Source: Escherichia coli (GTDB lineage Bacteria; Pseudomonadota; Gammaproteobacteria; Enterobacterales; Enterobacteriaceae). From it: DNA of 64,000 nucleotides. A model generated the notes under the pieces. That model saw only the letters and a program-made list of their open reading frames with translations. It was not told the origin of the DNA and ran no database searches. The DNA lies in the NCBI RefSeq assembly GCF_002854065.1, contig NZ_CP024147.1; one strand, written 5' to 3'. Below, piece by piece: positions 22,238 to 36,089 of the stretch. Every line of letters starts with the position of its first letter. The first letter of the stretch is position 1. A program made the translations under genes and the position numbers.

Positions 22238-23050
22238 GTGGTCGATATGCTGTCGGCCACACTCCTGAATCGGACTGTCTTTCACTCCCTCTCTCCACTA
22301 CATTCCCTTGCTCATTTAGCATCTGATATGGAGTCATCAGTGAACAAGGCCCCCTCTTTAATTGCCGCTATCGTCCTCGGACTGGGGATTAGCGCCTGTG
22401 GTTATTTTGTTGGTGATGGTGTTAAACATTTAAAAACCAACAACCGTTATGTGAATGTGCGCGGGCTTTCTGAAAAAGAAGTTCGCGCAGATACGGCAGA
22501 ATTAACAATTGCGATTAACTTTAAGGGTAATGTTCCCGGCGAACTGTTCCCGAAACTGGAAGACGCGCAGAAAAAAATTGTTGCCGAACTCAATGCTCAG
22601 GGGATTAACGAGAAAGAGATAATCCTGGGCCAATGGACAAGCAAGCGAACTGATTCCTTCTATCTGAAAGATGATCCCACAATGCCACGCTATAACGCAG
22701 ACGGGTCAGTGACGATAAAAACCCATAATGTTGCTGCTGTCGAAAAAGTCGTCGCGAAATTAAACGAACTGCAAGTCGCTACGGATGGCGCTATCGCTGA
22801 GAGCAAAGTCGCCTATCGCTTTAATGGTATTGGCGCACTGCGCGCTGAGATGATTGCTGCCGCCACCAAAGATGCACGCAACGCCGCACTACAATTTGCA
22901 ACGGACTCAGGTAGCCAGGTGGGGTCAATTAGCGATGCCTCACAAGGCGTATTCCAGATCTTTGCCAGTGGCAGTGATGAAGATGATCCTACGGCGATTA
23001 ATAAAACGGTACGCGTAGTCACGACCGTAACCTATGCGTTGCAGGATTAA
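22238..23050 (+). CDS. putative lipoprotein with SIMPL/DUF541-like sequence pattern (270 aa from GTG; more likely 240 aa from ATG at 22328)
   Basis: Uninterrupted ORF with E. coli-like codon usage; internal start MESSVNKAPSLIAAIVLGLGISA|CG carries signal peptide plus lipobox; C-terminal AxxxAxxxA...G..G.I pattern resembles the SIMPL fold (YggE, BP26). No gene at this position in the K-12 order as I recall it. Confidence 0.55.
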   Translation: MVDMLSATLLNRTVFHSLSPLHSLAHLASDMESSVNKAPSLIAAIVLGLGISACGYFVGDGVKHLKTNNRYVNVRGLSEKEVRADTAELTIAINFKGNVPGELFPKLEDAQKKIVAELNAQGINEKEIILGQWTSKRTDSFYLKDDPTMPRYNADGSVTIKTHNVAAVEKVVAKLNELQVATDGAIAESKVAYRFNGIGALRAEMIAAATKDARNAALQFATDSGSQVGSISDASQGVFQIFASGSDEDDPTAINKTVRVVTTVTYALQD

Positions 23051-23058
23051 CCACTTTT

Positions 23059-23100
23059 CTCCGGCGGGACACTAATCCCTCCGTCCTGCCGGACTTTTCT
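23059..23100 (+). terminator. candidate intrinsic terminator after the extra ORF
   Basis: Imperfect inverted repeat TCCGGCGGGA...TCCTGCCGGA followed by CTTTTCTC. Confidence 0.4.
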
Positions 23101-23181
23101 CATATCCACAGAGTATCCAGGTGCGCTCGCTGCCCCTCACGTATATACTTTTGCTCTTTCGATATCATTCATATCAATATC

Positions 23182-24890: not shown

Positions 24891-24942
24891 AAATAAAACA
24901 CGTCAGTGGCACATCTGGCAATTGATGCCATCAACGAAAGAT

Positions 24943-26301
24943 TTAATTCACCTCAGAAATCTCTTCCAACGACACCTTCCGCGTTTCGATGCCAAAAATG
25001 GAGAGAACCAGCGCACAGAGCAATAACATGACACCAAGTACCATAAACACCGTGATCGACCCATAATGTGTTAATAATGCCGCAACGCCATAGGGCGTGA
25101 AGACTGCGACGATCCGTCCGACGGCATTAACGAAACCCGAACCGCGCAGGCGTAAATGCGTTGGCCAAAGCTCCGGGATATAAACCGCCGACGCGAAGCA
25201 AACATACATGTATAAAAAGAAGATCATCACCAGGCCATAGATTAAAATCGCCCACTCTGTAGTCTGAATTGAATAGATATAGCCTAACACGGCAATAATA
25301 ATAAGTAAGGTGGAGCCAAATAACCGACGAGGAAAATGATCAATAATTAATGCCGCAATAAATATTCCTACCGGAGCGCCAATCATAATAACAGCGGTCA
25401 TTAATATTGATTTATCGACATCAATGCCGGAGTTAACAAATATGGTCGGTATCCATACGGTGATGGTATAAAGCGAAATGTTCATTGCAATTAAAACAGT
25501 AATCGCGACTAATGTACGTCGTAACATTTCACCTTTAAACAGGAGCCAGAAAGTACCCTTGATTACTTTAACCTTGCTGTTGCTCTGATACGAAGTAAGC
25601 GGGGGTAAACGAATACTCTTCTCTCTTTCAATTTGCTGCTCTACTTCACGAAGTTGGCTTTCTGCACCTGCGATTTGCCCTTTCCCTGCCAGCCATCGTG
25701 GCGACTCAATAAAGTATTTACCTGAAAGAAACCAGGCTAACAGTATGCCAATACCACCCAGCAGAAACATTATCCGCCAACTAAAAAAAGCGATAACCAC
25801 CACACCTATCGCCGCAGACAGCATGGGCGACCAGTTACCAACAAATGAGAGCCGCGCGGACCATTTTCCACGCACCGTCGCGGGGATAAACTCCGTAAAT
25901 GAGGCATAGCCAACCATAATCAGCGCCCCCATTCCTGTTCCCATCAGGAAGCGAAAGAAGATGAGCCAGTACATATCAGGGACAAAAGCGGCCCCTGTTG
26001 CAGCAATACCGACGATGAGAAGATTTATGCGAAACGCCCTGCGCCGCCCAAAGTAATCACCGATGAACCCACCGGTAAGAGAGCCGATGAAATAACCAAA
26101 CATTAATGCCGAGGTAAAGGCGGCATTGAGGAAATTATTTGACCATCCATTGCTTACCAGCTTTGCTAAGACGACATTACCGGAGTAACTCAAAAACCCT
26201 GTTAATAACAGACTAAAGCTTATAATACCAAATATACGATAATGAAACCGGGCCAAAGGCAAGCGGTCCAGTCTTGCGCCAATTTGATCATATTGTTCCA
26301 T
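24943..26301 (-). CDS. ydjE: MFS transporter (452 aa)
   Basis: ORF 24943..26406; start at MEQYDQIGARLDRLPLARFHYRIF; 12 predicted TM-like hydrophobic stretches. Confidence 0.8.
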   Translation of the reverse strand: MEQYDQIGARLDRLPLARFHYRIFGIISFSLLLTGFLSYSGNVVLAKLVSNGWSNNFLNAAFTSALMFGYFIGSLTGGFIGDYFGRRRAFRINLLIVGIAATGAAFVPDMYWLIFFRFLMGTGMGALIMVGYASFTEFIPATVRGKWSARLSFVGNWSPMLSAAIGVVVIAFFSWRIMFLLGGIGILLAWFLSGKYFIESPRWLAGKGQIAGAESQLREVEQQIEREKSIRLPPLTSYQSNSKVKVIKGTFWLLFKGEMLRRTLVAITVLIAMNISLYTITVWIPTIFVNSGIDVDKSILMTAVIMIGAPVGIFIAALIIDHFPRRLFGSTLLIIIAVLGYIYSIQTTEWAILIYGLVMIFFLYMYVCFASAVYIPELWPTHLRLRGSGFVNAVGRIVAVFTPYGVAALLTHYGSITVFMVLGVMLLLCALVLSIFGIETRKVSLEEISEVN

Positions 26302-26418
26302 TGGGTGCCTCGGATTTGCTAAAAAAGGTAGCAATTGCGGCAAATTCACTTGCCGCATCTTTATCATCATTTTATTTCCAGGCGCAGGAACAAATAATAT
26401 TGACAACGTGTGCTTAAA

Positions 26419-27177
26419 TTACCACACCAGCTGGATATTATTGTCTTTGCAAAATGCTATCCACTCTGCACCCGGTGATTTATCAGTTATTATGTAATTA
26501 ATATGACTAAAGTCAGCTAACTGGACAAAAGCTTTGCGATCAAACTTAGAGTGATCAACCAATAACGCAACTTCTGTCGCCTGACGGATCATTGTCTTTT
26601 TGATTTCAGCTTCCGCTTCATTAGAGTCCAGCGCGCCGCTGTTAATATCAAGACCTTTACAACTCATTACCATGATATCGACATGGTAGCGGCTGATGAT
26701 CTCTTTAGTAATTCTTCCTTGCAGTGAAAGTGTATTTTTGTTTAGTTCCCCACCCGTTGAAACGACTTTAATTTCTGACTGAGCCAGAACATGAATCGCT
26801 TCCGCCGAGTTGGTTAGCAACGTCAGGTCACTACGGTCCTGTAACAATTTGAGCAATTCCATTACGGTACTACTGGAATCGGCTGCCATGGTGGTTTTAT
26901 TGTCGATAAAGGGTAGTGCCTTGCGTGCAATAAGCTGCTTCTCTTCATAAAACGATGAAGCGCGCTTATAAAAATGGATATTCTCCGTCAACATCGCTGT
27001 ATTTAAAACAGCACCACCATAGGTTCTGGTCAAAAAGCCTTCATCTTCCAGCTTCTCAAGATCGCGGCGAATGGTTTCTTCGGTTACCTGAAAAATCCCA
27101 CTCAAATTTGAGACTGTCACCTTTTTATCGTTGGCAACCATTTGCTTAATTGCCTGAATCCTGTCTTTTGCCGCCAC
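26419..27177 (-). CDS. ydjF: DeoR-family transcriptional regulator (252 aa)
   Basis: N-terminal HTH (VSNLSGIFQVTEETIRRDLEKLE) plus C-terminal sugar-phosphate-binding domain. Confidence 0.85.
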   Translation of the reverse strand: MAAKDRIQAIKQMVANDKKVTVSNLSGIFQVTEETIRRDLEKLEDEGFLTRTYGGAVLNTAMLTENIHFYKRASSFYEEKQLIARKALPFIDNKTTMAADSSSTVMELLKLLQDRSDLTLLTNSAEAIHVLAQSEIKVVSTGGELNKNTLSLQGRITKEIISRYHVDIMVMSCKGLDINSGALDSNEAEAEIKKTMIRQATEVALLVDHSKFDRKAFVQLADFSHINYIITDKSPGAEWIAFCKDNNIQLVW

Positions 27178-27313
27178 GATTACACCCCTGTATCTTTTTA
27201 CATCACATTAGCGCGATTATCGCATAACCGATGTTTACTTTCAAAATAACCTGTTTGAATCACAGATTTTCATCACAGTTTTCACAGAAACAGAGGTGAA
27301 TCGTGTTGAGTAT

Positions 27314-28294
27314 TTAACGCTCCAGGGCCTCTGCCATTTCCCTCATCAATGTTGCGTCTGCATCCGATAAGTTGATATTCAGTGCTGCGACATTTTCGCG
27401 TACCTGTTCCGGTGCAGTAGCCCCACTAAGAATGGAGATTAAATCACTCTGTTTTAATATCCACGCCAGTGCCAGAGTGGGAATTGTGCACTGATAACGA
27501 GCACAAAGTGGCTGCCACTGTTCAAGCATATCAATCACTTTCAGCATGTTTTCACGCTGGAACCAGACTTTATTTGCCCGAGCGCCGCCCGGAACGTAAT
27601 CACGAGTGATGGTGCCGGTCAACAATCCCTGCTCTAGCGGGGAATAAACCTGAACCACAATGCCATTATCACGACATAGCGGCAGCAGTTCGTTTTCCAT
27701 TGCCCGGTCGAGGATACTGTATTTCGCCTGAATAATATCCAGTTCACCATATTGCAGATACTCGCGGATATGGTCAGCATCGACGTTAGCAGCGCCTATA
27801 GCGCGAATTTTCCCTTCAGCCTTTAACTCATTAAGCACTGCGACAGTTTCAGCGATCGGCGTATAAAATGGCGGCACCGACTGCCAGTGCGTCATGTAGA
27901 TATCGATGTAATCAATACCCAGACGTTGCAAGCTGGCTTCTACCTCTTCGCGGATAGATTCCGGGGAAAGGTTTTTATACAACTGCCGATCGCCAACTTT
28001 GTTGAATAAACTTCCTTTTCGTTCCCAGACAATGCCGCATTTGGTTTCTACTACAACCTGTTCACGGGGCAGTTTTTTTAACGCCTGACCGACGATAACT
28101 TCACTATTGCCAAAGTTATATCCTGGTGCAGTATCAATCAGGTTAATGCCGCAACGATGGGCTTCAAGAATCGTATCAATACATATTTGCCGATCGAGAT
28201 CGCCATTCCATGCAGGACCGCCGCCAATGGCCCATGTCCCCAACCCCATTCGCGAAAGCGTAATATCCGTTGTGCCTAAAGGTATCTTTTTCAT
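27314..28294 (-). CDS. ydjG: aldo-keto reductase (326 aa)
   Basis: ORF track 27314..28294; AKR family pattern. Confidence 0.85.
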   Translation of the reverse strand: MKKIPLGTTDITLSRMGLGTWAIGGGPAWNGDLDRQICIDTILEAHRCGINLIDTAPGYNFGNSEVIVGQALKKLPREQVVVETKCGIVWERKGSLFNKVGDRQLYKNLSPESIREEVEASLQRLGIDYIDIYMTHWQSVPPFYTPIAETVAVLNELKAEGKIRAIGAANVDADHIREYLQYGELDIIQAKYSILDRAMENELLPLCRDNGIVVQVYSPLEQGLLTGTITRDYVPGGARANKVWFQRENMLKVIDMLEQWQPLCARYQCTIPTLALAWILKQSDLISILSGATAPEQVRENVAALNINLSDADATLMREMAEALER

Positions 28295-28303
28295 TTGCCT
28301 TCA

Positions 28304-29251
28304 TTATCCTTCGTATTCTTCCAGCAATTGTTCGACCAGCTTTCTGTTTTTTACGCCGGTGGTGGCACCGACGCTTAGAACCGAGATAGCCGCCGTTGCA
28401 TTGGCAAAGCGTGCGCATTCACGCAGATTTTTGCCTTCTAACAGTGCCGCAATAAAACCTGAAGCAAAGTTATCGCCCGCGCCAATGGTGTCGATGGCGG
28501 TTATTCCTGCGACCGCCGGCACCTTCATCGTCATGTCACCACGCTTGATAAAGCAGCCGTCTTTACCCGTTTTAATCACCACCGTTTTTACGCCGCACGC
28601 AAGAAAGCAGTCAGCAATTTCATCCAGTGTCTCTTTCCCGGTGAGTAATTTTGCCTCGGCATAATTAGGAAACAGATAATCGACATAACTCAATGCTTCG
28701 CAAATATCATCCAGCGTTTCATTCAACCGCGGTTTGATCATATCGGCACAGATAATCATCTGCCGGGCTTTAGCTTGCGTAAAAATTTCTGTTAGCGCTT
28801 TACCATCCAATAGTGGACTGTTGAAAATACTGGCCAGTGATAATAATTTCGCCTGGGAAAACCGCGCAAAATCAACATCGTCAATATTCAATTTCCACAG
28901 ACTGCCGTTACGGTTTGTGACAAACGTCCGCTCGCCATCCTCCGTCACCAGTCCAACATTAATAGAGGTATCTATGTTGACGTCCTGCTTCAGGCTTTGA
29001 ATATCAATATTCTCTTTGCGGCAATGGTCGAGAATAAACTGCCCTGCGGCATCTTTACCAATACGGCTCATTAATGCTGTACGATGGCCCAGACGAGAAA
29101 TAATTGTTGCTTCATTTATTGCATCACCCCCGGTGGTCATTGCGATTCTTTCAAGAGGATAAGAATCCACATCAAAGATATTTTTACTGACCGGTTGCAA
29201 TGGAATATCAACAATAGCGGCACCTATACAAATAACGTCGAGATTATCCAT
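28304..29251 (-). CDS. ydjH: PfkB-family sugar kinase (315 aa)
   Basis: ORF 28304..29272; start at MDNLDVICIGAAIVD; GAGD motif (DTIGAGDNFASGF). Confidence 0.8.
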   Translation of the reverse strand: MDNLDVICIGAAIVDIPLQPVSKNIFDVDSYPLERIAMTTGGDAINEATIISRLGHRTALMSRIGKDAAGQFILDHCRKENIDIQSLKQDVNIDTSINVGLVTEDGERTFVTNRNGSLWKLNIDDVDFARFSQAKLLSLASIFNSPLLDGKALTEIFTQAKARQMIICADMIKPRLNETLDDICEALSYVDYLFPNYAEAKLLTGKETLDEIADCFLACGVKTVVIKTGKDGCFIKRGDMTMKVPAVAGITAIDTIGAGDNFASGFIAALLEGKNLRECARFANATAAISVLSVGATTGVKNRKLVEQLLEEYEG

Positions 29252-29255
29252 ATCA

Positions 29256-30092
29256 TTATTCCGCTTTGCCATCAGAACCGAACAGTTTAATTTTTTCCAA
29301 TGCCCGTTCTTTTACAGCTTTACGTACTTCACGTTCTAAATGCAGGAAAGGCTGATCCTGGTTTTCTTTCACTGCGACCATTGCGGCCTGACAGAGCTCC
29401 GTATGGATGTTGATTTTCGCGATACCTAACGAAATTGCAGTTTTAATGTCGGCATCACTGATCCCCGATGCGCCATGCAAAACCAGCGGAACAGACACGG
29501 CATCGCGTACGCGTTTGACGACCTCAAAGTTCAATTGTGGCTCTGACGTATAAACCCCATGCTGGTTGCCGATGGCGACAGCCAATGAGTCACAGCCCGT
29601 ACGTTCAACAAATTCAGCCGCCTGGTCAGGATCGGTATAGTGATAGCCCGCCAGAGCTTCCTCATAAACGGTTTCATTACCGACATGCCCTAATTCCGCC
29701 TCTACCGGAATACCCAGCGGATGGAAGAAATCAACAGCCTCTTTGGTTAAACGAATATTTTCTTCGAAATCAAATGCGGAAGCATCACGCATTAATGAAT
29801 TCATACCATGAGTCCAGGCGTTATGAATAATCTCCATACTCCGACCATGATCCCAATGAGTTATTACCGGCACCGTTGCTTTTTGTGCCATTGATACCAT
29901 CATGTGAGAGAAATCTTCAAATGAGGTGTTGCCGACAAAACCTGTGCCAAAAGAAATAATAACCGGTGATTTCGCTTCTTCGGCTGCGTCGATAACGCCC
30001 ATCAACATTTCTGCATTCCATACATTAAAATGGGCAATAGCATAACGTTTATTTGTGGCATCGTTTTCCCAATATCTGATATCTGCGAGCAT
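29256..30092 (-). CDS. ydjI: class II (metal-dependent) aldolase (278 aa)
   Basis: ORF track; fructose/tagatose-bisphosphate aldolase class II pattern. Confidence 0.85.
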   Translation of the reverse strand: MLADIRYWENDATNKRYAIAHFNVWNAEMLMGVIDAAEEAKSPVIISFGTGFVGNTSFEDFSHMMVSMAQKATVPVITHWDHGRSMEIIHNAWTHGMNSLMRDASAFDFEENIRLTKEAVDFFHPLGIPVEAELGHVGNETVYEEALAGYHYTDPDQAAEFVERTGCDSLAVAIGNQHGVYTSEPQLNFEVVKRVRDAVSVPLVLHGASGISDADIKTAISLGIAKINIHTELCQAAMVAVKENQDQPFLHLEREVRKAVKERALEKIKLFGSDGKAE

Positions 30093-30112
30093 GTTCTGTT
30101 CTCCCGTATTAA

Positions 30113-31156
30113 TTAATCGCTAATCTTAATAACGCCTTTAATAATGTCGCGTTTGTTGTTAACTGACTCTTCAAATGCCTGTTGTACATCCCGATAATCG
30201 TAAATATGCGTCACCATCGATTTCACATCGAATCGCCCTGAAGAAATAGCTTCAATCGTGACCGGATAACGATTGGCATAGCGGAATACCGTCTGGATAG
30301 TGACTTCACGATTTATTTTGAGGAAATTGATTGCCGAATCGCCGGGTACAGTACCAACAATCATAATTTTACCGCCGCGCATTACCAGATAAGGTGCCTG
30401 TTTAACGGTGACCGCAGAACCCGCTGTTTCGAAAACAACATCTGCGCCCATGTCTTCGGTAAATTGCTGACAGCGTGCAATAGTGTCTTCTTTTGCGCCG
30501 TTAATAACCACTGTCGCACCAAGCTGTTCCGCCATTGCCAGACGTTTTTCCAGCACATCAACGACGGCAATTTCCGTTGCTCCCAGGCATTTGCACGCTT
30601 GCAACGTCATCAAACCAATACAACCTGATCCCAGAATAATTATCTTCTTACCCGGTTTAACATCTGCCAGCATCGCGGCATGCATCCCGACTGCGGCAGG
30701 CTCCACCAGCGCCCCTTCCATCGTGTCCATATTGTCGGGCAGTTTGTAAGTAAAGCTCTCCGGATGACACAGATAGTGCGTTAATGCGCCGCGGTAGTTG
30801 GGTTGTGTCGCCATAAAATCAACGTCCGGGCAGATGTTATATTTGCCTTCCAGACAGTAACGACAGTGACCGCAAGGAACGCCAGGTTCGATATTTACCC
30901 GATCCCCCGTTTTAAATTTGCGCACGCGGCTTCCCACAGCCACAACCGTCCCGGCGCATTCATGACCCAGGCCAATTTCTTGATTTGGGTCTTTAGGCGG
31001 AATAAACGGACCTGATTCAAAACCATGTACATCTGAACCACAAATACCGACATATTCTACTTTAATCAAAACTTCATCTTCTTTAGGCACTGGTATTTCT
31101 GCTGAAATAATTTTCATTGTGCCCGGCACCTGCAATATTGCTTTTGAATTTTTCAT
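30113..31156 (-). CDS. ydjJ: Zn-dependent alcohol/polyol dehydrogenase (347 aa)
   Basis: GHECAG catalytic Zn motif, structural Zn Cys cluster (CGHCRYC), GxGxxG NAD site. Confidence 0.85.
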   Translation of the reverse strand: MKNSKAILQVPGTMKIISAEIPVPKEDEVLIKVEYVGICGSDVHGFESGPFIPPKDPNQEIGLGHECAGTVVAVGSRVRKFKTGDRVNIEPGVPCGHCRYCLEGKYNICPDVDFMATQPNYRGALTHYLCHPESFTYKLPDNMDTMEGALVEPAAVGMHAAMLADVKPGKKIIILGSGCIGLMTLQACKCLGATEIAVVDVLEKRLAMAEQLGATVVINGAKEDTIARCQQFTEDMGADVVFETAGSAVTVKQAPYLVMRGGKIMIVGTVPGDSAINFLKINREVTIQTVFRYANRYPVTIEAISSGRFDVKSMVTHIYDYRDVQQAFEESVNNKRDIIKGVIKISD

Positions 31157-31172
31157 TTTGAATCCACCCGTA

Positions 31173-32552
31173 TTATTTATTGGCTACTGCATCAATACTT
31201 AAACTTTCAACGGAGACACCTTTGGTTTCGATTCCAATGGTGGCGATAGCAATTGCGACAATAATTGAAACCGCCCCCAGAAGAATAAAGACTCCCGTAA
31301 CGCCATAACTACTGAGCAGCACTGCAACGGCATAAGGTGCGGCAATACCACTGATTCGCCCTACCGCATTCGCCAGACCGGAGCCACGGAGTTTGGCCTC
31401 TGTCGGCCAGATCTCAGGGACATACACTGCCGAGGCATAGCAAACGTACATATAGACGAAAGTAATCAGGAAGAAACCAATCAACGTTATGAGCAACATG
31501 CTGGTTTGCAGTGAATAGATATATCCGAGCACCGCAATCAGGATTAATAGCCCCACACCCATTGTTTTACGCGGAATTTTATCCATCACCAGCATGGCAA
31601 TAAAAATGCCAAATGGCGCGCCAAACATACTCATGGTATTTAAAACAATCGAGTCTTTTAAATTAATCCCCTGGGTCATGAATATCGTTGGCAACCAGTT
31701 AATTAGTGTGTACTGCACAACGTTCATGGCAATCAGCACACAAGAGCCTAATATCACGCGTTTCAGTAATACTCCTGTCAGTAAGGCTGAATATGGCACC
31801 GCTTGTGGTGCTTTACCGTCATCAGCAATAACCACGGGCGGCAAAGGTTTACCTGTATGGCGTATGACGCCTTCTTCTATACTCCGCATGACTTTCTCGG
31901 CTTCCTGATACCGTCCGCGCGATTCCAGCCAGCGCGGGGATTCAGGAAAGTAGCGCCAGGCCAGCGCCGTAGCGATAAGCGACAATATTGCAGGGATAAG
32001 CAGTTGTACCCGCCAGTTCCACTCTGCACTAATCAGCGGCGTGAGTCCCATCGCTATCAATGAACAGAGCGGATATGACCAGTTGCCAATAAAGGAAACC
32101 CGACTTGACCACGTTCCACGATTTCTACCGGGCATATATTCGGTGAAACCAGCAAACAGCGTAACCAGTAAAGCTCCCAGCCCAACTCCCATCACAAAAC
32201 GGCAGGCAATAAGGAAATCCATATTCGGTGAGAAAGCACCGACAACCATCGAGGCAATATGAATGGCCTCATAGAGGATGAACGCATTTCTGCGACCGGT
32301 TTTGTCGCCAATGATGCCGCCCACCAGCGCACCGAGAAACATTCCGGCGGTCGTGATTGCTGAGAATGTGGCTGTGGTGGAATTATCTGTCCAGCCCAAC
32401 GCTTTCAGCTGCGCGAGGATCAAGCCACCAACGGCATTACTCCAGCAGACAAGCAAGCCAAACGCGACGATGGCAAACATTGACGAATGCCAGCGGCAAT
32501 CCGGTAAGCGATCCAGCCGTGCACCACAATGCGGTTTTGTTATCTGTTCCAT
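31173..32552 (-). CDS. ydjK: MFS sugar transporter (459 aa)
   Basis: ORF track; 12-helix MFS pattern. Confidence 0.85.
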   Translation of the reverse strand: MEQITKPHCGARLDRLPDCRWHSSMFAIVAFGLLVCWSNAVGGLILAQLKALGWTDNSTTATFSAITTAGMFLGALVGGIIGDKTGRRNAFILYEAIHIASMVVGAFSPNMDFLIACRFVMGVGLGALLVTLFAGFTEYMPGRNRGTWSSRVSFIGNWSYPLCSLIAMGLTPLISAEWNWRVQLLIPAILSLIATALAWRYFPESPRWLESRGRYQEAEKVMRSIEEGVIRHTGKPLPPVVIADDGKAPQAVPYSALLTGVLLKRVILGSCVLIAMNVVQYTLINWLPTIFMTQGINLKDSIVLNTMSMFGAPFGIFIAMLVMDKIPRKTMGVGLLILIAVLGYIYSLQTSMLLITLIGFFLITFVYMYVCYASAVYVPEIWPTEAKLRGSGLANAVGRISGIAAPYAVAVLLSSYGVTGVFILLGAVSIIVAIAIATIGIETKGVSVESLSIDAVANK

Positions 32553-32578
32553 GCGATAACGTTCCTTCAGGAAAGTTG

Positions 32579-33655
32579 TTATTCATCAAAGTCGTAAGTC
32601 ATGATCACTTTGATTGCGGTTTTATCGACCATCGCATCAAACCCTTCGCACCATTGCGACAGGCCGATACGATGCGTGATCATCGGTTTGACTTTGATAG
32701 CGCCGCTGGCTAATAGCCTGATAGCGTTACGCCATGAGGTGGAGTCATAGGCCATATGCCCAATGATGCTTTTGTTCCAGGCGGTAATGTCATTAATCGA
32801 GAAATCAAGAGGTTTGAAGCCCATTCCAACGCGTACCACTTCCCCGTTCGGGCGGAGCATTTCGATGGCTTGTTTCAGTGCGATATTGGCACCGGAGCAT
32901 TCAATCACCAGTCCCAGATTGTCTTTGCCACAAATTTGCTGGCAGCGCGCCACCACATCTTCGGTAGAACCATTTACTACTGCCGTCGCACCCAGTTCTT
33001 TTGCAACCGGGAAGCGGACCGCCACATCTTCTTGCAGACCAACGACGACGATATTTACCGCCCCCATAATTCGCGCCATTTGTACGGAGAACAGCCCGAG
33101 TGGGCCAGTGCCGATGACGACCACATCCTGACCAGGAAGGAATTTCGATTGCTGCGCGATGGATTTGTAGGCATTACAGATAGGGTCAAGTACGGCTGCG
33201 TCCTCATAATCAACACCATCAGGGATTTCCCACAACGCATGACGATGAATTTTGAGAATTTCACCAGGTACCAGACAATATTTGGAAAAACCACCGCCCC
33301 AGGTATTATTATCCAGACCAAGGTTTACTTTTTCTGTACAACACAGAAAATCACCTTGTTCACAGGCCGGACAAACGCCGCAAACGTGACCGCTGTTATC
33401 CGATACGACGCGTTGCCCCACTTTCCAGTCTTTGACTTTTTCACCAACCTGCGCAATACAACCTGCGAACTCATGGCCGCGGATAGAGTTAAACTCATCA
33501 GAATCGCTATCGACATTGTAGTGCTTCATGTCTGCGCCGCAGATTGCCGCGGCTTTAATTTCAATCACTACATCTTCCGGGCCACACATGGGTTGTGGGA
33601 CATCAATCATCTTGTAGCCGCCAAAGGCCTTGCCAAACCGAGCCAATGCTTTCAT
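32579..33655 (-). CDS. ydjL: Zn-dependent dehydrogenase (358 aa)
   Basis: GHEFAG Zn motif, CxxCxxC cluster; first gene of a minus-strand ydjLKJIHG array. Confidence 0.85.
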   Translation of the reverse strand: MKALARFGKAFGGYKMIDVPQPMCGPEDVVIEIKAAAICGADMKHYNVDSDSDEFNSIRGHEFAGCIAQVGEKVKDWKVGQRVVSDNSGHVCGVCPACEQGDFLCCTEKVNLGLDNNTWGGGFSKYCLVPGEILKIHRHALWEIPDGVDYEDAAVLDPICNAYKSIAQQSKFLPGQDVVVIGTGPLGLFSVQMARIMGAVNIVVVGLQEDVAVRFPVAKELGATAVVNGSTEDVVARCQQICGKDNLGLVIECSGANIALKQAIEMLRPNGEVVRVGMGFKPLDFSINDITAWNKSIIGHMAYDSTSWRNAIRLLASGAIKVKPMITHRIGLSQWCEGFDAMVDKTAIKVIMTYDFDE

Positions 33656-33730
33656 TGCGTCATCCTCTGTGTTTTGTTTTGCTTAGATGGCCATCATACT
33701 TACCCACATGATTTTTGAGGTCAACATTAA

Positions 33731-33747
33731 ATCTGTAAAACACAGAT
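33731..33747. promoter_or_regulatory. perfect palindrome upstream of ydjL (candidate operator)
   Basis: ATCTGT-aaaac-ACAGAT about 75 nt upstream of the ydjL ATG, adjacent to a TTGACC -35-like hexamer on the minus strand. Confidence 0.3.
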
Positions 33748-34024
33748 AATGATCTGCGTTTTACAACTTAGATCACAATTACGCAGAAAATGGCTCGGTC
33801 TGTTACAGGTTGATGGAAGGCGGGACGCAAAAAGAGCAAATTCGAGAGGGATTACCGGCCAAATAGGTCTGAGACTTAAGTTCAGGAGAAGTCATTCAGG
33901 CGTGAACGCGACTGCAAGAGATCGGACTGGGACTTAGCCAGGTCGGGGCGAGATAATTGAGACGAGTCGTGGGGTCATTGTTGGCTATCCCCTTCATAGC
34001 CGCGGCAAAAAGGGGATGAACCAC

Positions 34025-34297
34025 TTACTTAAACATGGCAATCGGCTTTGCTGAGATACCAAAATCTTCTTTTAACTGCTGTTTGCTCTTCATGACCATC
34101 TGACCATTTGTGTCAATTGTCATATGCTGCGCTTCGGTATTATTGCGGGCTTGCCACAGCATCACGAGTTGCAGGCAGTTCTCTTTTTGTTCCTCGGTCA
34201 ACGCAACGCCATCGGGCCATTTCCCCAGTTCAACGGCGGTCGACAAACGCTGGTATACCTCAGGCGTCATGCTGTTGATAATGTCATCAAGATTCAT
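34025..34297 (-). CDS. yeaC: DUF1315 family protein (90 aa)
   Basis: ORF 34025..34342; start at MNLDDIINSMTPEVYQRL. Confidence 0.8.
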   Translation of the reverse strand: MNLDDIINSMTPEVYQRLSTAVELGKWPDGVALTEEQKENCLQLVMLWQARNNTEAQHMTIDTNGQMVMKSKQQLKEDFGISAKPIAMFK

Positions 34298-34338
34298 AAT
34301 TTTTCCGCTCCTGTGGAATAAGCTGCTGAATCGTTTTT

Positions 34339-34752
34339 TCAACCGTTGATTTCTTCGCCGTTTTCGCCATCAGTGAAGCGTAAAGAGGCAGAGTTAACAC
34401 AATAACGTTCGCCCGTTGGCTGCGGCCCGTCGGGGAAGACATGTCCCAGATGGGCATCACAGTTACCGCAACGAATTTCTATGCGCTGCATTCCATGTGA
34501 CAAGTCTTTGATATAACGAATGGATTCTTCACTTACCGGTTCGTAGAAACTGGGCCAGCCACAGCCGGAATCATACTTGGTTTGGGAATGAAACAGCGGG
34601 GCATCGCAGATCAAACAGTGATATACGCCGTCACGCTTGTTATGCAGTAAACGACCCGTAAATGGCGGCTCTGTCCCATGATTCTGCGTCACGTAAAACT
34701 GCATCTCGGACAAATTTTTTTTCAGTTCTTCTGCCGAAGGTTTATTAGCCAT
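34339..34752 (-). CDS. msrB: peptide methionine-(R)-sulfoxide reductase (137 aa)
   Basis: ORF 34339..34782; start at [12 protein letters not shown]; two CxxC Zn-site pairs and catalytic Cys. Confidence 0.9.
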
Positions 34753-35081
34753 TTGCTCACATCTCACTTTAATCGTGCTCACATTACGTGACTAATTCTA
34801 ACAAAACATTAACACCAACTGGCAAAATTTTGTCCTAAACTTGATCTCGACGAAATGGCTGCACCTAAATCGTGATGAAAATCACATTTTTATCGTAATT
34901 GCCCTTTAAAATTCGGGGCGCCGACCCCATGTGGTCTCAAGCCCAAAGGAAGAGTGAGGCGAGTCAGTCGCGTAATGCTTAGGCACAGGATTGATTTGTC
35001 GCAATGATTGACACGATTCCGCTTGACGCTGCGTAAGGTTTTTGTAATTTTACAGGCAACCTTTTATTCACTAACAAATAG

Positions 35082-36089
<1,008 letters not shown>

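Follow-up and report, generated by a model that had tools for sequence, protein, structure and literature searches.

The yeaC and ydjL genes of Escherichia coli lie next to each other on the minus strand of the 64,000-nucleotide stretch of DNA that we analyzed (the window), together with msrB just upstream of yeaC; all the relevant genes are on this strand. The gap between the two genes spans 369 nt (33656-34024) and corresponds to K-12 positions 1861333 to 1861701, with 11 of the 369 positions differing between K-12 and the window. The RefSeq K-12 annotation places no feature and no annotated RNA within this gap. Around it, the window (33556-34124) is 100% identical to NZ_CM128593. A first-pass annotation, made from the letters alone, had pointed to a long, structured intergenic region here. 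The region is real, with coordinates and sequence correctly given and a length of 369 nt. The description as structured holds locally, at a hairpin close to yeaC, and does not hold overall, as the whole 369-nt gap folds no better than shuffled sequences (z -0.4). Read in the direction of transcription, the genes and the features of the yeaC-proximal part are as follows.

34025-34297, minus strand: yeaC (list of open reading frames)
34025-34027, minus strand: yeaC stop codon TAA (list of open reading frames and K-12 annotation)
33982-34023, minus strand: U-less 3' stem-loop of the msrB-yeaC mRNA (folding energy and conservation of the stem)
33841-34008, minus strand: variable segment, specific to E. 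coli and single copy (sequence comparisons)
33978, minus strand: steady-state 3' end of the yeaC RNA (Term-seq, equivalent of K-12 1861655)
33782-33978, minus strand: C-rich, G-poor, poorly structured spacer, proposed rut or Rho termination zone (composition, folding, and Rho score)
32579-33655, minus strand: ydjL (list of open reading frames)

The hairpin that had been described as an 8-bp stem directly after the yeaC stop, with no U-tract, is present as claimed. Its arms, ATCCCCTT at 33987-33994 and AAGGGGAT at 34010-34017, enclose a 15-nt loop; this stem starts 7 nt past the TAA on the transcribed (minus) strand, and the ten nucleotides 3' of the hairpin, AGCCAACAAU, contain one U only. The full stem-loop comprises 14 pairs (33982-34023) and has a dG of -21.1 kcal/mol (z -3.0), a value reached by 1 of 200 shuffles. 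This extended fold consists of a lower stem UGGUU/AGCCA, a core stem AUCCCCUUU/GAAGGGGAU (34009-34017 with 33987-33995), and a 13-nt loop. It was not called in a scan for terminators. The inverted repeat by itself is only mildly unusual and counts for little (a perfect 8-bp inverted repeat is present somewhere in the 369 nt in 8% of dinucleotide shuffles); it is the position of the hairpin and its conservation that carry weight.

All of 8 E. coli alleles and two other Escherichia species have the core stem TCCCCTT/AAGGGGA unchanged, with the loop replaced. In E. whittamii and Escherichia sp. E1V33 a hairpin sits at this very position; its stem, ATCCCCTTTA/TAAAGGGGAT, is the same, and its loop is different. 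In the stem alignment of these ten sequences 95.5% of the cells are paired, and the only changes in the two pairs flanking the core are A-U to G.U and U.G to U-A. Covariation, which had been proposed alongside conservation as a check on the hairpin, turned out to be slight because the sequences are close relatives: just two pairs are altered on both sides, both in the lower stem. Other genera have different GC-rich hairpins shortly 3' of the yeaC stop, mostly without a U-run.

An abundant RNA end coincides with this hairpin in published data. Adams et al. (2021, eLife, PMC7815308) list a "primary" yeaC 3' end, mapped by Term-seq, at K-12 position 1861655, with mean read numbers of 51,796 and 96,402 in two condition sheets (their Supplementary file 1). 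This position maps to 33978 in the window and lies 4 nt downstream of the extended stem. In the same study (PMC7815308), DirectRNA-seq of K-12 with and without bicyclomycin defined a Rho termination region whose best position is 1861188. Upstream and downstream of this position, reads numbered 224 and 7 without bicyclomycin and 147 and 95 with the drug, for a Rho score of 20.7 (p 1.8e-24). In addition, a ydjL "5' UTR + ORF"-lacZ fusion was more than 2-fold higher in a rhoR66S background (PMC7815308). Downstream read-through rises when Rho is inhibited or mutated in K-12, as seen at a resolution of 800 nt. The score was computed from 800-nt windows, and its best position falls 145 nt into ydjL, so that most of the termination could take place inside ydjL instead of the spacer. 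Likewise, the reporter does not localize the terminator because it starts inside yeaC, at the forward primer start K-12 1861809 (34132 in the window), and contains the whole ydjL open reading frame; it covers 34132-32579 and with that the whole gap. The Term-seq, Rho, and reporter data all come from K-12 and are read here across the 11 gap positions at which that strain differs from the window.

A stable, GC-cored hairpin that follows the stop codon directly, and whose stem lies a few nucleotides before a sharp and abundant 3' end, might be taken for a non-canonical intrinsic terminator that stops the polymerase at about 33978 independently of Rho, leaving the C-rich spacer without a role. We consider this improbable. 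The ten-nucleotide tail with its one U and the failure of the terminator scan to call the hairpin argue against it, as does the increase in downstream reads from 7 to 95 upon Rho inhibition in K-12. Moreover, 3'-terminal stem-loops without a U-run are what the literature describes as the hallmark of Rho-dependent transcripts: these were reported to have precise steady-state ends just 3' of stable U-less stem-loops, which shield the RNA against PNPase and RNase II, with a rut site just downstream (Dar and Sorek 2018, NAR, PMC6061677).

The RNA that follows the hairpin has a distinct composition. The spacer (33782-33978, 197 nt) contains 68 C against 35 G (C/G 1.94), and its best 78-nt window has a C/G of 2.3 and 21 YC dimers. 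For the slightly longer segment 33770-33978 (209 nt), the value of (C-G)/L is at the 99.8th percentile among all windows of this size over both strands of the entire 64 kb. The spacer also folds more weakly than 186 of 200 shuffles (z +1.3). In E. whittamii and Escherichia sp. E1V33, an unrelated 158-nt filler, absent from all E. coli genomes searched, takes the place of the 33841-34008 segment, and the C/G of these unrelated fillers is 1.85 to 2.04; in other genera in which ydjL directly follows yeaC, that of the spacer ranges from 1.37 to 3.13. Given that the stem and the bias of C over G survive full replacement of the surrounding sequence in the sister species, selection appears to act on structure and composition and not on sequence. 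The earlier suggestion that the gap might be a Rho-dependent termination zone is supported by this C-rich, G-poor, unstructured RNA 3' of the hairpin together with the sensitivity to bicyclomycin and to a Rho mutation in K-12, and it is already documented in published genome-wide datasets. From the composition and the lack of structure, we infer that Rho may load in the spacer itself.

The first-pass annotation had also raised the possibility of an unannotated small RNA, for which a promoter-like element inside yeaC is of relevance.

34132-34144, minus strand: promoter-like -10 element AATAAT (34139-34144) inside yeaC (primer mapping)

The published ydjL reporter has its 5' end at 34132, 6 nt downstream of this hexamer, which matches the consensus at 5 of 6 positions and reads AATAAT in the window and CATAAT in K-12. 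In every other species it decays, to AACAAT, CACAAC, or TACAAC, also in Escherichia species that keep the hairpin. Conceivably, transcription from here could yield a discrete RNA of about 155 nt, starting at about 34132 and ending at 33978, that acts as a 3'-end-derived regulatory RNA of the ProQ type. The start of the Adams et al. fusion 6 nt downstream of a 5/6 hexamer and the very strong Term-seq signal at 33978 would fit such an RNA. We nevertheless think that it is unlikely to exist, and equally doubt that most of the RNA end at 33978 stems from an independent transcript of this length driven by an E. coli-specific promoter within yeaC. The -10 element is not conserved outside E. coli, even where the hairpin is kept; the hairpin lacks a U-tail for Hfq, and neither an Rfam match nor an annotated K-12 RNA exists here; and Adams et al. 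assign the 33978 end to the yeaC mRNA, as its primary one. A search of 33000-35200 on both strands against Rfam 15, with E values up to 10, returned only four chance-level hits to eukaryotic or viral snoRNAs and ribozymes.

A convincing open reading frame had not been seen in the gap, and this assessment stands, the small candidates having failed conservation tests. A frame for 42 aa on the minus strand (33896-34024) remains open, yet of the 14 nucleotide differences that distinguish the alleles about 12 alter the amino acid, a neutral pattern. In several strains another frame, for 62 aa on the plus strand, is cut short or no longer has a start codon. Neither a small RNA nor a small protein is thus supported, and we regard the gap as ordinary gene punctuation.

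Comparison of the 41 loci obtained in a scan with YdjL shows how differently the two sides of the gap have fared. Outside Escherichia only the 125 to 137 nt adjoining ydjL are conserved (33656 to about 33781-33793), and blastn detects this block in Citrobacter, Klebsiella, Raoultella, Yokenella, Intestinirhabdus, Budvicia, and Serratia. The spacer occurs at the yeaC-ydjL locus only; apparent plasmid hits trace to three E. coli records, two of which are of chromosome size. A REP/BIME element or another mobile repeat was considered for the hairpin and rejected because the hairpin segment is single copy, with a single location in each of 4,333 genomes.

The ydjE-ydjL cluster (24909-34026) is a presence/absence polymorphism, missing in about 1,090 of 5,426 complete E. 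coli genomes (~20%). In strains without this island the homology to the window ends exactly at the yeaC stop. In such strains, for example O111:NM 14614, 07_3722, and RMDEC465, pncA adjoins yeaC via a 93-bp filler in which the yeaC hairpin persists in a decayed form (dG -7.3). Judging by synteny in Citrobacter and Klebsiella, having the cluster is probably the ancestral state. Elsewhere in the window, an indel of about 840 bp between sppA and ansA (about 22262-23102) corresponds to a gene for a SIMPL-domain protein that is present in the window strain and RMDEC465 and missing in O111 and 07_3722.

In Citrobacter braakii (L012 8015-9733), two genes lie between yeaC and ydjL, convergent to yeaC, encoding an HNH-endonuclease-like protein of 137 aa and a chitinase-like protein of 426 aa. 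The same two extra genes are present at other Citrobacter and Klebsiella loci, as judged by the matching length of the gap, and in C. amalonaticus (L032 9540-9870) only a relic of the chitinase C terminus is left (tblastn E 2e-5). The possibility that the E. coli spacer is itself a relic of these chitinase or HNH genes was dismissed, as tblastn gave no signal in the spacer. From these comparisons, the yeaC-ydjL junction has clearly been unstable in evolution.

Given this history, the hairpin and spacer could be a mere scar at the DNA level of gain, loss, or reshuffling of the ydj island, devoid of any function in RNA. The island boundary at the yeaC stop and hairpin, the fifth or so of E. coli genomes that lack 24909-34026 and have a decayed hairpin, the unrelated filler in the sister species, and the two extra junction genes in Citrobacter and Klebsiella are all compatible with this idea. 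It is, however, the least probable of the explanations that we have weighed, and a very unlikely one: the stem is exactly preserved across alleles that differ in loop and flanks, the excess of C over G recurs in unrelated fillers, the hairpin coincides with a mapped RNA end, and the element is single copy rather than a REP or mobile repeat.

Homologues of YdjL with 76 to 84% protein identity (L024-L039) are found in Lachnospiraceae, Eubacteriaceae, Anaerococcus, Enterococcus alishanensis, Megamonas, and Atopobiaceae. This identity is far closer than phylogeny predicts and indicates that the ydj cluster was probably transferred between phyla in recent times. A second group of matches comprises ydjL fragments that are 95 to 100% identical to E. 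coli in assemblies of Terrisporobacter, Limosilactobacillus vaginalis, and Prolixibacteraceae (L040-L043). Their contigs are very short (241 to 545 bp), with a coverage of about 0.75 to 0.9x where the contig name states it, and they probably represent E. coli contamination of those assemblies.

The part of the gap that adjoins ydjL has the features of a promoter region.

33656-33781, minus strand: ydjL promoter/operator/leader block (blastn and alignment of 25 sequences)
33771-33777, minus strand: TGTGATC box, possible regulator site or CRP half-site (24 of 25 aligned sequences)
33734-33765, no strand assigned: 32-bp imperfect palindrome TGTAAAACACAGAT-N4-ATCTGCGTTTTACA, candidate operator next to the -35 element (sequence and alignment)
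33719-33724, minus strand: -35 hexamer TTGACC (TTGA in 25 of 25 sequences, TTGAC in 24 of 25)
33696-33701, minus strand: weak -10 candidate AAGTAT, 17 bp from the -35 element (sequence and alignment, with the transcription start presumed from these)
33663-33667, minus strand: ydjL Shine-Dalgarno sequence GAGGA (alignment, in a well-conserved region)

The palindromic candidate operator and the -35-like hexamer for ydjL that had been picked out from the sequence are both real and belong to this block, which is conserved along with the ydj cluster across the Enterobacterales. The palindrome arms (33734-33747 and 33752-33765) are 14 nt each, with 13 of 14 positions complementary, and both halves are kept in most genera of the 25-sequence alignment, in which ATCTGTGTTT is highly conserved as well. 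The ydjL block hence combines repeat symmetry with adjacent core promoter elements, conserved across genera. A CRP-like site, TGTGATCTAAGTTGTA, has 7 of 10 core matches in the window and 6 of 10 in most other species and may possibly bind CRP.

If transcribed from upstream, the operator palindrome (33733-33766) would form an AU-rich RNA hairpin of 14 to 15 bp with a predicted free energy of -18.3 kcal/mol (z -4.4), and AUUUAAUGUU would come directly after it. This hairpin is picked up by the terminator scan and could serve as a back-up stop for read-through from yeaC, but no 3' end has been reported there.

The ydj cluster encodes a DeoR-family protein, YdjF, which is listed as uncharacterized in the literature; our literature searches found neither binding sites nor binding data for it. 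The ydjG-ydjF intergenic region (27177-27314) contains the boxes CCTCTGTTTCTGTGTAAAA and AAATCTGTGATTCAGACATGTT, which are near-invariant in more than 20 Enterobacterales and have the words ATCTGTG and TGTG.AAA in common with the ydjL block. They constitute a candidate autoregulatory site for YdjF. Most likely, the palindrome and boxes upstream of ydjL are bound by YdjF, with CRP as a possible additional factor. The presence of near-invariant boxes upstream of both ydjL and ydjF provides a concrete operator prediction for this DeoR-type protein, and the conserved palindrome with its CTGTG boxes would be the first defined YdjF operator. A second, auxiliary operator inside ydjH (CAGATgATTATCTGTG, 28747-28762) was also considered and attributed to chance, as it is not conserved in other species. 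At this place CAGATGATTATCTGTG shares 15 of 16 positions with the center of the ydjL palindrome, a chance resemblance within a sequence that encodes the peptide QMIIC.

Taken together, we believe, with a probability of roughly four in five, that two ordinary modules make up the gap, adjoining each other where the ydj gene island begins. The yeaC-proximal two thirds would be the end of the msrB-yeaC mRNA, with a protective stem-loop and a Rho zone, and the ydjL-proximal third would hold the ydjL promoter with a probable operator. In the first module (33782-34023, minus strand), the ribosome would leave at the yeaC stop, allowing the RNA to form a stable stem-loop without a U-run, while the transcript runs on for some 200 nt that are untranslated, rich in C, poor in G, and weakly folded. 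Rho would load in this spacer and release the polymerase before or early in ydjL. The heterogeneous ends thus created may then be trimmed by 3'-to-5' exonucleases back to the stem-loop, which, by analogy with other Rho-dependent transcripts, we infer to be the origin of the sharp and abundant end at 33978. The second module (33656-33781) would be the ydjL promoter, with its TTGACC -35 element, weak -10 element, 32-bp palindrome, and TGTGATC box, its sites most likely being bound by the DeoR-type YdjF of the cluster and possibly by CRP. The outcome of the first module would be that the normally silent ydjLKJIHG sugar-acid operon is insulated from read-through of the constitutively expressed msrB-yeaC transcript. 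Two observations go slightly beyond the published tables, namely the persistence of the stem and of the C over G bias, and the boxes shared between ydjL and ydjF; neither alters current understanding.

Both modules have counterparts among known systems. Like the operators of DeoR, GlpR, AgaR, and UlaR at sigma-70 promoters, the ydjL block combines a long AT-rich inverted repeat with short boxes by the -35 element. It shares with DeoR-family operators the setting in a catabolic operon, a DeoR-family protein encoded in the cluster, conservation across genera, and boxes upstream of the regulator gene. The DeoR operator itself consists of TGTTAGAA/TTCTAACA. The ydjL palindrome is unlike it in sequence, and YdjF is its putative binder.

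As for the yeaC end, a possible internal promoter and a 3' end in common with the mRNA are reminiscent of small RNAs that derive from 3' untranslated regions and are transcribed from promoters inside open reading frames. Unlike these, the yeaC end carries neither a U-rich Hfq-binding tail nor a conserved promoter. The GC-cored hairpin just past the stop codon and the sharp RNA 3' end recall a canonical intrinsic terminator, from which the yeaC end differs in that a U-tract is absent, with one U in ten nucleotides, and in that transcription downstream is sensitive to Rho. The closest match is the class described by Dar and Sorek (2018), with a stable U-less stem-loop, a 3' end a few nucleotides past it, C-rich and G-poor RNA directly downstream, and read-through upon Rho inhibition. 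Nothing of substance sets the yeaC end apart from this class, with trimming by PNPase or RNase II presumed here by analogy. The stem-loop, the missing U-tract, and the C-rich RNA downstream that mark Rho-dependent transcript ends are all found here. The yeaC end would be a clean textbook instance of an E. coli mRNA that ends without an intrinsic terminator, and an example of a housekeeping transcript that is kept out of a silent, horizontally mobile catabolic operon.
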